Program-made: the position numbers and the translations under genes
Assembly: GCA_018303505.1 (NCBI GenBank)
Contig: JAGVYA010000044.1
Span: forward strand, 1-52,647
Source of the DNA: Candidatus Woesearchaeota archaeon
Lineage (GTDB): Archaea > Nanobdellota > Nanobdellia > Woesearchaeales > GW2011-AR4
Direction: 5' to 3'
DNA: 52,647 bases
The notes under the pieces: model-generated
Told to the model about the DNA's origin: nothing
Seen by the model: the letters and a program-made list of their open reading frames with translations, nothing else
The model's database searches: none
Part shown: piece by piece, positions 3,401-44,297 of the stretch
Layout: each line of letters begins with the position of its first letter
How positions within the stretch are numbered: the stretch's first letter is position 1

Positions 3401-3490
3401 GTAGGCGAGGCGGAGTGATATGGCAGAAGAACGACGCCGAGCACTAACTATTGTCGCGAAGCGACGGATTGAAGGGTTAGTGCTTCGATA
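3401..3490. other. GC-rich structured intergenic island, possibly a diverged member of the GC-rich repeat family
   Basis: A roughly 90-nt GC-rich patch sits in an AT-rich spacer. It contains nested inverted repeats: gagcactaac...gttagtgct and an inner gtcgc-gaa-gcgac. The motifs gtaggcgagg and gacgccgagc resemble the 25.9-kb and 43.95-kb elements. Confidence 0.3.
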
Positions 3491-25163: not shown

Positions 25164-25718
25164 ATGGCAAAGAAAGAACCTAAGAGAGACATAAAAGTAG
25201 TCAATATAGTTGTTTCTACATCTTTAATGCATGCTATACCGCTTGAAAAGATGGCTGCAACTCTAAGCAATACAGAATACAACCCAGAACAGTTTCCTGG
25301 TCTTGTTATAAGGATAAAAGAGCCTAAAACGTCTGCTTTGATATTCAGCTCTGGCAAGGTTGTATGCACAGGCGCAAGGTCTATGGACAAGGTTGAGGAG
25401 AGCATCAAGAAGATAATAAAAAGCCTGGAGAAGATAAATGTCAAGATAACAGTAAAGCCAGAGATAAAGATACAAAATATAGTAGCTTCTGGAAGCGTAG
25501 GCATGGACTTAAACCTTAACACCTTGGCTATGAAACTAGAAAATACAGAGTACGAGCCAGAGCAGTTTCCTGGATTAGTTTACAAGCTTGCTGCTGCAAA
25601 GGCAACATTTTTGCTGTTTAGCAACGGCAAGGTTGTATGCACAGGAACAAAAAGCGAGAAAGAAGTGCATGCAGCTCTTGACAAGCTTATTGAAAACTTA
25701 AAAAGGGTAAAGGCTTGA
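25164..25718 (+). CDS. tbp: TATA-box binding protein
   Basis: Two direct repeats carry EYNPEQFPGLVIRI and EYEPEQFPGLVYKL plus SGKVVCTGA / NGKVVCTGT. A GGGGTG Shine-Dalgarno site lies 10 nt upstream. Confidence 0.95.
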   Translation: MAKKEPKRDIKVVNIVVSTSLMHAIPLEKMAATLSNTEYNPEQFPGLVIRIKEPKTSALIFSSGKVVCTGARSMDKVEESIKKIIKSLEKINVKITVKPEIKIQNIVASGSVGMDLNLNTLAMKLENTEYEPEQFPGLVYKLAAAKATFLLFSNGKVVCTGTKSEKEVHAALDKLIENLKRVKA

Positions 25719-25736
25719 TTCGCTAGAAAATCTAGT

Positions 25737-25775
25737 GAGATGCGAGTGAGCTCGTTTCACTCGCTCACATTCGAC
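25737..25775 (-). repeat. Partial inverted copy of the GC-rich element family
   Basis: The reverse complement gtcgaatgtgagcgagtgaaacgagctcactcgcatctc shares gtcgaatg and cgagc...tcgcat..tcac blocks with 43948-44015. It contains an 8-bp hairpin, gcgagtga / tcactcgc (25742-25764). Confidence 0.5.
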
Positions 25776-25776
25776 T

Positions 25777-25808
25777 GATTTTCTGCGCCACGAAAATCAA
25801 AGATTTTC
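25777..25808. repeat. GATTTTC / GAAAATC-aaa-GATTTTC hairpin motif
   Basis: The hairpin gaaaatcaaagattttc at 25792-25808 is preceded by a further gattttc at 25777-25783. It is the same motif as the array at 43121-43226. Confidence 0.6.
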
Positions 25809-25896
25809 ATGGGTTTTATCTTTATTGTTTTTATTTATTTTCAGCATTGTGACCACTGGACATCTCTGTGTAAGATATTTAAAGTGAGAAAACAAG

Positions 25897-26014
25897 GGAG
25901 TTGAACGCGAGCAGTGAGTTGGTGAGCGAGGTAGATGCGTGTGAGTCCACGAGCACGCTCGCGGACAACTCGAACCTCGCATGTCGCCGAGCGTTCTCGC
26001 AAGCAGGTGTGAGT
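25897..26014 (+). repeat. GC-rich ~115-nt intergenic element, copy A, directly upstream of the mcm start
   Basis: It shares ordered blocks with 43948-44059: gt(t/c)gaa(c/t)gcgag, tgagcgag, tcgcatgtc and ttctcgca. GC content is far above the surroundings. It is open in frame and so artificially extends the mcm ORF. Confidence 0.6.
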
Positions 26015-43120: not shown

Positions 43121-43226
43121 CAAAATCAAAGATTTTGTGGTCCAGAAAATCTAAAGATTTTCTTGGAATTAAAAATTCAGTGAAAATCCAAGATTTTCGA
43201 GGTGTTCAAAAATCTCTGATTTTTGA
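43121..43226. repeat. Array of four GAAAATC-N3-4-GATTTTC hairpin units in the L22-S3 spacer
   Basis: caaaatcaaagattttg (43121-43137), agaaaatctaaagattttct (43144-43163), gaaaatccaagattttc (43182-43198) and tcaaaaatctctgatttttga (43206-43226). Confidence 0.75.
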
Positions 43227-43262
43227 CATTTGGAACTCCCAAAATTTCAACGGGGTGAAATT

Positions 43263-43982
43263 TTGATAGAAAGAAAATTTGTAGCCCAGAAAATTAAGGA
43301 ATTTCAGATACAGGAGTATGTAACACAGAGCCTAGAGAATGTTGGGCACAGCCACACAAAAATGGTTAAAACCCCATTAGGAGAGAAAATAATAATATTT
43401 GCATCAAGGCCCGGCTTAATTGTCGGGAGAAAAGGGCAAAACATAAAGCAACTTACAAAGACATTAAAGAAGAGGTTTAATTTAGAAAACCCCCAGATAG
43501 AGATAAGTGAAGTAGAAAATCCTAATTTAGACGCAAATATAGTGGCAGAAAAAATTGTTGACGCCCTTGAGAAATTCGGCTCTGAAAAATTTAAGGCCAT
43601 AGGACATAAGATAATGACTGAGGTCATGAGATCAGGGGCCCTTGGGATAGAGATTGTCGTAAGCGGAAAAGTTCCAAGCGCAAGGGCAAAGTCATGGCGC
43701 TTTTACTCAGGCTATCTTAAAAAATGCGGTGACATAGCAATAGTCGGAGTCAGAAAATCCAATACCCAAGCGCAATTAAAAACAGGCATAATAGGCGTTA
43801 AAGTCAGTATAATGCCGCCTGACATTAAATTGCCAGATGATATAAAATTAACTGAGCAAAGGGAAGTTAGTGTTGAGAAAATAAAAGAAAAAACAGATGA
43901 AGAAATGCCAAAAGAGGAAATAAAAAAAGACAAAGCAAAGAGAAGAAGTCGAATGCGAGTGAGGGAGATGAGCGAGCGTTGA
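43263..43982 (+). CDS. rps3: 30S ribosomal protein S3 (uS3)
   Basis: A TTG start gives (M)IERKFVAQKIKEFQIQEYV, matching archaeal S3 N-termini. A GGGGTGA Shine-Dalgarno site lies at 43251-43257. There is a KH domain (GRKGQNIKQL). The last ~11 codons run into GC-rich element copy B. Confidence 0.9.
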   Translation: MIERKFVAQKIKEFQIQEYVTQSLENVGHSHTKMVKTPLGEKIIIFASRPGLIVGRKGQNIKQLTKTLKKRFNLENPQIEISEVENPNLDANIVAEKIVDALEKFGSEKFKAIGHKIMTEVMRSGALGIEIVVSGKVPSARAKSWRFYSGYLKKCGDIAIVGVRKSNTQAQLKTGIIGVKVSIMPPDIKLPDDIKLTEQREVSVEKIKEKTDEEMPKEEIKKDKAKRRSRMRVREMSER

Positions 43983-44059
43983 GTTAAGCGAGCGAAAGCG
44001 AGCTTTCGCATGTCACACGAGTTCTCGCATTCCACCTGAAACTCGCTCACAACTCGGTG
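43948..44059 (+). repeat. GC-rich ~115-nt element, copy B, between rps3 and rpl29
   Basis: gtcgaatgcgagtgagggagatgagcgagcg...gcgaaagcgagctttcgcatgtcacacgagttctcgcattcc...ctcgctcacaactcggtg. Hairpin gcgaaag-cgag-ctttcgc. Shares ordered blocks with 25897-26014. Confidence 0.6.
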
Positions 44060-44069
44060 AAAAAAGAAG

Positions 44070-44297
44070 ATGAAAGTGAAAGAACTAAGATTAATGAACG
44101 AACTTGACCTTAATAACAAGTCAAATGAATTGAAAAAGGAATTGATGAAGTTAAATTCACAGATTGCAATAGGAACTGTGCCAAAAAGCCCCGGCAAAGT
44201 AAAGGAGATAAAAAGAACAATTGCAAAGATATTAAGCATAAATAATGAGAAAACAACAAACAAAAAACAACAGAAAGGAGGAAGAAAAAAGGAATGA
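44070..44297 (+). CDS. rpl29: 50S ribosomal protein L29 (uL29)
   Basis: [31 protein letters not shown]. Confidence 0.9.

Follow-up and report, generated by a model that had tools for sequence, protein, structure and literature searches.

Probable mobile hairpin repeats, nested in front of mcm and rpl29, in a genus of Woesearchaeota

The GC-rich blocks that lie immediately before mcm and rpl29 in a Candidatus Woesearchaeota genome are best explained as non-autonomous, hairpin-shaped mobile DNA repeats of a Woesearchaeota genus and not as regulatory RNA, a reading to which we assign a probability of roughly 0.78. Within each block, hairpins of different sub-families are nested three deep, an organization that the first reading of this DNA had missed. 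The hairpins insert without visible target duplication and are repeatedly found in the apical loop of another hairpin, giving rise to compound nests. In the mechanism we envisage, insertion would act on folded or single-stranded DNA, a putative enzyme supplied in trans would read the conserved bubble hairpin, and copies would persist where their cost is low, as in spacers, disordered in-frame protein tails, and introns.

The genomes of DPANN archaea are among the smallest of any cells. Dozens of selfish repeats in essential genes are unexpected for such a tiny genome, and here they affect the mcm promoter-to-start interval, the uS3/uL29 junction, ProRS, and tRNA introns. The kind of repeat is a known one, similar to REP and RPE elements, while the variant is new in DPANN archaea, and a full-text literature search did not find such repeats described for Woesearchaeota or DPANN. 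What is added here are two series of insertions in essential genes, about 20 loci with presence/absence differences, the apex of palindromes as a target, an anti-complementary bubble, and negative tests of RNA function and of known mobilizers.

The window, meaning the whole 52,647-nt stretch of DNA that was analyzed, is contig C37 of the genome under study (G000), an assembly of 1.305 Mb in 77 contigs with 34.9% GC that is 88% complete. Other genomes of the same genus are called congeners and labeled G001, G013, G041, and so on, and C numbers are contigs of G000. Public relatives of G000 carry the label Candidatus Woesearchaeota, with groundwater as their source.

The hairpin superfamily and its sub-families

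The mcm block (25897-26014) has a GC content of 61% versus 35% genome-wide, and both this block and the rpl29 block are made from the words GCGAG, GTGAG, CTCGC, and CTCAC. The GC enrichment and the GCGAG/CTCGC words are as the original prediction had described. Clusters of at least three such words, spaced by at most 25 nt and with both polarities required, number 79 in G000 compared with 0 to 3 in five Markov-1 randomized genomes. Short-word BLAST with three named elements as queries produced matches on more than 40 G000 contigs, among them 98% identity to C17 over 64 nt and to C23 over 50 nt, and 88% identity to C7 over 41 nt. The expectation that further copies would be found across the genome is thus borne out by both searches. 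Of 24 other genomes of the genus, 22 carry the simplest unit, type A, and beyond the genus it was found in 0 of 16 other families of the order. Non-coding DNA, which makes up 14% of the genome, holds 59 of the 79 clusters; this and the other gene-context statistics are based on crude calls of ORFs of at least 80 aa.

The two blocks had been said to share ordered stretches of sequence. Their direct local alignment is weak, with z=3.9 and a score equaled in 5 of 500 dinucleotide shuffles; the two are distinct compound elements, and their kinship runs through common sub-modules. The outer hairpin of the rpl29 block and the hairpin downstream of tbp align with z=5.9, a score reached by 0 of 500 shuffles. 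This confirms the stretch 25737-25775, initially described as a partial copy on the other strand, as a true relative, but its polar core (GCGAGTGAG...CTCGCTCAC) places it in the same orientation. The element at 3401-3490, which had been proposed as a possible member, gave z=-0.2 and -1.0 against the two blocks and belongs to a separate repeat family of ~70 nt, the K unit. Rfam 15 returned no match at gathering thresholds for the whole window and only chance-level matches at relaxed ones (E up to 5), in agreement with the earlier failure to recognize a known RNA family, and assignment to such a family was rejected on the blank result at both settings.

The superfamily consists of short imperfect palindromes made of GYGAG/CTCRC words, with cores of 22-45 nt, which we divide into sub-families A-F. 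Type A gave ~45 regex matches in G000, has a fixed polarity, and is laid out as (A/T arm) CAGTGAGAT GCGAGTGAG CTCG - loop - CGAA CTCGCTCAC ATTCGACTG (A/T arm). Its stems hardly vary among copies. The arms mismatch at 6 of 22 positions, and nine other genomes of the genus contain copies with these very differences. The 7-mers beside the core are GTGAGAT versus ATTCGAC, with variants. These inner 7-mers are complementary at 3.56 of 7 positions within a copy versus 4.06 of 7 in cross-pairs (permutation p=0.995), and since they are less complementary within copies than between them, a conserved unpaired bubble is indicated. The outermost 10 nt behave in the opposite manner, with 5.2 of 10 positions complementary within a copy versus 4.1 between copies (permutation p<1e-4), and this pairing is bimodal, 10 of 27 copies having 8-9 of the 10 positions paired. 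Both the non-complementary internal bubble and the mismatches are conserved genus-wide. A reading of the bubble as a K-turn (GUGAGAU...CUGAC, box C/D-like) was rejected because the orientation relative to transcription is random and GA is missing in half of the 3' arms.

The other sub-families are B (TGAACGCGAG...CGTTCTCGC; 22 independent simple copies), C (GCGAGCGAAAGCGAGCTTTCGC; 8), D (TGGTGAGCGAG...CCTCGCATGTC; ~12), and F (TGAGCGAGCGAG...CTCTCGCAT; ~18), together with E (GTAGATGC...ACAACTC), which is present in 2 copies, one in the mcm block and one at C7:2719-2759 (88%). The mcm block is a B>D>E nest, with B outermost, and the rpl29 block is an A>F>C nest (Table 1). The simple type A hairpin downstream of tbp folds with z=-4.3 on the plus strand and -3.4 on the minus strand (0 of 200 shuffles), while the folding of the compound blocks shows no advantage over shuffles (z -1.1 to -2.0). 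A unit 98% identical to the inner 64 nt of the rpl29 block recurs at C17:39088-39151, in reversed orientation and seated in the loop of a second type A, the stem of which is intact (GAGCTTCG-TT-(insert)-CGAAACTC). One and the same B hairpin occupies an identical position in the loops of two K units, on C47 and C65, so compound forms are copied as units as well. The small H0 hairpins (CGAAAATC-nnn-GATTTTCG), with A-run and T-run arms, are a repeat family themselves: hairpins of this A-arm/T-arm type with loops of at most 12 nt number 65 in G000 versus 5-13 in Markov controls. A further palindrome family of ~50 nt, ATGYTCGGAAATY-(24-25 nt)-RATTTCCGARCAT, was seen on at least 10 contigs (for example C31:23497-23535 and C66:17562-17600) and also inside the mcm insert of G013.

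Table 1. Coordinates of genes, repeats, and promoter elements in the window
Feature	Position	Strand	Details
K unit	3401-3490	+	GGCGAGG-stem1-ATGGCAGAA-stem1'-CCGAGCAC-...-stem2-GGATTGAA
tbp	25164-25718		
Type A hairpin	25725-25784	.	core CAGTGAGAT-GCGAGTGAG-CTCG/loop/CTCGCTCAC-ATTCGACTG; inverted A/T arms AGAAAATC...GATTTTCT
Small H0 hairpin	25788-25812	.	CCACGAAAATC-AAA-GATTTTCATGG
mcm promoter region	25853-25884	+	box CCACTGGACAT at 25853-25863; TATA box ATATTTAAAG at 25875-25884
Compound element B>D>E	25898-26014	.	ends 1 nt before mcm ATG
Outer B arms	25898-25912; ~25987-26009		GAGTTGAACGCGAGC; GAGCGTTCTCGCAAGCAGGTG
Middle D	25913-25988		CAGTGAGTTGGTGAGCGAG...CCTCGCATGTCGCC
Inner E	25931-25971		
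Shine-Dalgarno-like word	26005-26009		AGGTG, 5 nt before mcm ATG
mcm start ATG	26015		
Four H0-type A/T hairpins in array	43121-43227	.	fill the 157-nt rpl22-rps3 spacer; read from G000 sequence alone; 2 of 4 picked up by the H0 scan
rps3	~43263-43982		
Compound element A>F>C	43948-44059	.	3' tail of rps3; ends 10 nt before rpl29 ATG
Outer type A arms	43948-43963; 44040-44059		
Middle F arms	43964-43977; 44019-44036		
Inner C	43978-44018		GCGAGCGAAAGCGAGCTTTCGC at 43988-44009
rpl29	~44070-44297		ATG at 44070

Insertions at tbp-mcm and in the ribosomal protein operon

The type A hairpin downstream of tbp starts 7 nt past the tbp stop codon, is 98% identical over 50 nt to a copy on C23, and has copies on ~20 other contigs. 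It is missing in G041, G013, G022, and G001, where the tbp stop abuts a T-rich tract; compared with congeners, G000 carries ~90 extra nt after tbp. Together with the H0 hairpin that follows, it forms a recurrent two-hairpin composite that is found again at C23:7830-7920 and is empty in three congeners. A different insertion of ~150 nt (GGAAATTTAAAAAACGAGAACGGCCTCTGGC...), unrelated to the hairpin family, lies between the tbp terminator and the mcm box in G006 (locus L039).

The box CCACTGGACAT and the TATA box of mcm are invariant columns in a 12-genome alignment. In 15 congeners the mcm ATG lies 21 nt past TATTTAAAG, and the distance from TATA centre to ATG is ~25.5 nt, which implies a leaderless or near-leaderless mRNA. 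Judging from this promoter geometry in the DNA sequence, the ancestral mcm transcript would have been leaderless. The distance from the box to the ATG, 52-59 nt in the same 15 congeners, grows to 162 nt in G000 and 163 nt in G013. The insert adds a net 109 nt compared with the 15, and among the 16 congeners compared an insert at this place is otherwise found only in G013, where it has the same B arms, a different interior, and lacks the Shine-Dalgarno-like word. In G000 the mcm promoter would start transcription near 25905, inside the element, so that mcm would gain a GC-rich leader of ~110 nt made wholly of repeat DNA, with AGGTG near the ATG probably by chance. The mcm ORF also runs on upstream to a TTG at 25901, a false extension of 38 codons that we consider an artifact since 27 of 27 homologs align from the ATG.

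The box CCACTGGACAT, 12 nt 5' of the mcm TATA box, is present in 17 genomes and is, from its sequence conservation, a candidate regulator site for mcm. The mcm open frame ranges from 672 to ~1250 residues among genomes of the genus, which suggests inteins in some of them (G041, G005, G021, G023, and others) and none in G000.

The second block lies across the rps3-rpl29 junction and, like the mcm block, stops just before a start codon, as had been noted (10 nt and 1 nt before the ATG, respectively). The rps3 of congeners extends through the first ~35 nt of rpl29, read in a different frame, and its product terminates in ...ESEGTKADE followed by the stop. The site is empty in G013 and in most congeners. 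In G041 it contains the outer type A alone, read in frame as SRMRVSKAKLAHNSL with the old uS3 C-terminus kept, and in G000 it contains ~68 nt more than in G041, placed in the hairpin loop and introducing a premature TGA. This series from empty to simple to nested shows how a compound repeat grows. An unrelated small hairpin occupies the same spot in G002. The premature stop of G000 rps3 (TGA, 43980-43982) falls in module C, and the element provides the final 11 codons of the gene, whose product ends in ...KRRSRMRVREMSER without the conserved tail. It therefore appears that G000 rps3 lost the conserved C-terminal tail that overlaps rpl29 through a stop brought by the innermost insert. The blocks had been described as free of stops, which holds on the mcm side, where the ORF is falsely extended to the TTG at 25901, but not on the rps3 side, where the element supplies the stop. 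The former rps3 stop (window 44069-44110) reads CGA in G000, a change that is synonymous for rpl29, and its mutation fits a relaxed constraint after truncation.

No tree of G000, G013, and G041 yields the mcm and rps3 patterns with one event each, and one must assume that a site was hit more than once, that copies were lost precisely, or that lineages exchanged them. The rpl22-rps3 spacer, with its array of H0-type hairpins, is a second invaded junction of the ribosomal protein operon. For annotation, such stop-poor GC islands lengthen or shorten ORFs, as in the 38-codon extension of mcm and the truncated uS3, and they break assemblies.

Landing sites, mobilization, and rival explanations

Presence/absence differences were found at ~20 loci in all. 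Flank mapping between genomes gave nine loci that are filled in relatives and empty in G000 and eight more with the reverse pattern. In G000 a membrane protein encoded on C3 has ~30 extra residues that are missing from seven congeners, and ProRS, an E1-like enzyme, and others contain in-frame copies. The mobile, REP-like option of the original prediction is favored by this dispersal through genome and genus and by the orthologous sites that are empty in congeners. Clean junctions in coding regions show exactly +39 nt at two loci (L007 vs C11 and L142 vs C11) and +30 nt at a third. The proposed check for target-site duplications revealed no direct duplication at the clean junctions of L007/C11, L142/C11, L148/C65, mcm, or rps3. 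Empty sites are often short A-run/T-run palindromes, hit at their centre, and others are A-tracts. The palindromes read AAGAATCA-GA-TGAATTTT and CAAAAATT-ttggcattg-AATTTTTTG at the two loci with +39 nt, and GAAAAC/GTTTAA, with the junction at the slash, at a third locus. The apical loop of the K unit hosts GYGAG hairpins in at least 7 K copies. Besides A-rich tracts, the landing sites include A-run/T-run palindromes, K-unit loops, the loops of A, F, and B, and a tRNA intron, and what the latter four share is the tip of a folded structure. Nested junctions are often inexact, a few loop or stem bases being replaced.

Two sites on C7 concern tRNA-like sequences. At C7:4735-4894 (locus L212 86-245, minus strand) a tRNA gene with an Rfam score of 50.5 bits spans 160 nt and contains type A in its long intron; ARAGORN did not call it. 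At C7:1577-1861 (locus L211), the tip of a small hairpin, which reads CAACC-GAAA-GGTTG in a congener, is occupied by ~105 nt of hairpin repeats; the sequence there starts in a tRNA-like manner (GCTCCTGTAGTGTAGCCCGG...), and both Rfam and ARAGORN give no match.

The alternative offered at the outset, that the blocks are cis-acting structured RNA modules controlling stability, processing, or translation of mcm and rpl29, would account for two blocks that stop just before a start codon and would both be transcribed, and for the AGGTG found 5 nt before the mcm ATG, over which the second half of the block can pair in the predicted fold. We consider it very unlikely. Ahead of mcm, 15 of the 16 congeners compared have no block, most congeners have none ahead of rpl29, the G013 mcm insert differs inside and lacks the Shine-Dalgarno-like word, the compound blocks fold like shuffles, and Rfam is blank. 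In tandem spacers the orientation of type A relative to transcription is 11:11, and inside ORFs it splits 8 to 6. Tandem, divergent, and convergent spacers contain clusters in the numbers that their lengths predict (chi-square p=0.15), with no preference for the start or the stop side of genes (18 vs 21 clusters). An apparent preference for promoters or gene ends, in which convergent spacers seemed depleted, was discarded after the effect disappeared on correction for spacer length. It is harder still to credit that the hairpins are mobile bulge-helix-bulge introns, cut from RNA by the tRNA-splicing endonuclease so that insertions are harmless. Such excision would suit the copy in a tRNA intron and the tolerance of insertions in essential genes, but the canonical 3-4-3 geometry is not enriched among 158 element strands (32, vs 58 for 3-3-3 and 53 for 4-4-4), and many copies in protein genes are in frame and need no removal. 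Nor do the lengths at rps3 fit, as the excess of ~68 nt over G041 is not a multiple of 3 and the 112-nt span also fails the frame, which needs 2 mod 3. Random orientation, length-proportional use of spacers, and the unenriched bulge-helix-bulge geometry together indicate a DNA-level selfish element.

The copies may alternatively be kept for a service to the host at the DNA level, as with REP/BIME sequences that act as sites for chromatin or topology proteins or as punctuation of transcription units, mobility being secondary. The genus-wide conservation of type A, including its mismatches and anti-complementary bubble, could be taken this way, as could the strong enrichment in spacers (59 of 79 clusters in the non-coding 14%) and the resemblance of a GC hairpin between A/T arms to a two-way terminator. 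We regard this as unlikely, given that orthologous spacers of essential genes lack copies in most congeners, that copies also occur in coding regions and in a tRNA intron, that gene ends and spacer classes show no preference, and that the T-rich terminator tract after tbp is present with or without the hairpin. Against the preferred reading of mobile repeats it must be set that no mobilizing enzyme was found among the Y1, TnpB, and RT families, that untidy junctions leave room for recombination or repair-mediated copying, and that the genus-wide conserved mismatches could equally mean a host function for each copy.

No transposase of the families searched (Y1, TnpB, and RT) is linked to the hairpins. 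A Y1 HUH transposase (PF01797) is present in 23 of 43 genomes of the genus, TnpB above the cut-off in 4, and a reverse transcriptase in 9, and of these G000 has only the last, at C72:662-1279. That reverse transcriptase has a PF00078 score of 73.8 bits and a frame of 350 aa and may belong to a diversity-generating retroelement. At these frequencies TnpB and the reverse transcriptase were rejected as too rare to be the mobilizers. Movement in trans as REP/REPIN-type hairpins, by a RAYT-like or IS200/IS605-like Y1 HUH transposase acting on single-stranded hairpins, would agree with imperfect palindromes, conserved mismatches, insertion at unpaired hairpin tips, and the lack of target duplication, and several of the 23 genomes with PF01797 have open frames of 190-256 aa. 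This origin nevertheless seems doubtful. The genomes richest in type A, G000 (23 BLAST matches) and G001 (22; 90% complete, 20 contigs), have no Y1 gene, while G003 has three Y1 genes and no type A match. No conserved tetranucleotide stands beside the copies. The family word GYGAGYGAG lies within ~1.5 kb at none of 8 Y1 loci, and for this and the lack of co-occurrence we dropped the Y1 link.

None of the Y1 HUH, TnpB-associated, and RT families is consistently present in the genus. An unrecognized structure-specific mechanism, which would target the apex of folded DNA without target duplication and read the unpaired bubble, is a tentative suggestion of ours. The preference for hairpin tips and the lack of a linked transposase point towards a mechanism not yet described. 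If true, DPANN archaea would have a novel mode of transposition, which would also explain the remodeling of archaeal tRNA introns and protein tails.

Other sources of mobility were also rejected. The hairpin-dense regions of C27 and C71 contain housekeeping genes only, and viral carriage was dismissed as 23 loose pattern matches in IMG/VR fell to 0 with a slightly stricter pattern. Sharing with methanogen hosts was discounted because the hairpin-bearing 'Methanosarcinales' MAGs are congeners of G000 (tblastx amino-acid identity of 80-89%, GC 32-40%). The MAGs named 'uncultured Methanosarcinales archaeon' that carry type A correspond to loci L095, L100, L108, L111, L129, L141, L146, L158, L164, L168, and L170; most have ~80-89% amino-acid identity to G000, three of the eleven 55-67%, and their GC is 32-40%. 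Their 'Methanosarcinales' label looks wrong.

Among known systems, the bacterial REP, BIME, and REPIN sequences of E. coli and Pseudomonas are alike in being short GC-rich imperfect palindromes with conserved mismatches, with tens to hundreds of spacer copies, mosaic or compound arrangements, and no target duplication. They differ in that here no RAYT gene is linked and the host is a DPANN archaeon. The ends may differ as well, being CAGTSR...YSACTG here versus a GTAG head in those sequences, with GTAGAT seen only as one of several 7-mer variants. The present copies also nest in apical loops instead of standing side by side, and they occur in coding regions as well. Rickettsia palindromic elements (RPE) share the in-frame palindromic repeats tolerated in essential genes, here the uS3 tail of G041, ProRS, the E1-like enzyme, and the membrane protein, and the small genome of a probable symbiont. 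Units here are ~40 nt long versus 100-150 nt in RPE, mostly intergenic, and extensively nested; organism and unit length set the two apart, and their sequences are presumably unrelated. Haloarchaeal PATEs derived from IS200/IS605, and MITEs, are likewise small, non-autonomous, hairpin-rich archaeal repeats, and PATEs also lack target duplication. Unlike PATEs, the present repeats have no conserved target tetranucleotide, flanks that are only A/T-rich, and a single hairpin instead of two subterminal ones; unlike MITEs, they lack the signature of a terminal inverted repeat with duplication. No parent insertion sequence with matching ends was found for them among the Y1, TnpB, and RT families searched. 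Neisseria Correia and enterobacterial ERIC/IRU elements are also small palindromic repeats beside genes that are co-transcribed and can alter leaders and promoters, but they carry TA duplications of defined form and IHF sites and are known to be processed by RNase III, features that are not apparent in the present sequence.

K units as hosts of GYGAG hairpins

The K unit stands outside the GYGAG hairpin family, of which it is nevertheless a frequent host. It is a two-stem repeat of ~70 nt with 44 genomic copies, and its stems covary and are capped by GNA or ANA triloops with a closing C-G. The K family does not extend beyond the genus. By the crude gene calls, a K unit typically lies 10-60 nt 5' of a start codon on the same strand (22 of 43). 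As the 3' end GGATTGAA is usually 25-60 nt before such a start, the unit would abut the core promoter. Many copies have a common upstream box (CGAGAGCGACTTTT...GAAGAAAGTAAACCGCTTTTGA) or a head-to-head partner. At three orthologous sites K cassettes of 120-310 nt are wholly missing, and at one K empty site the flanks resemble a duplication of ~25 nt that includes the start codon.
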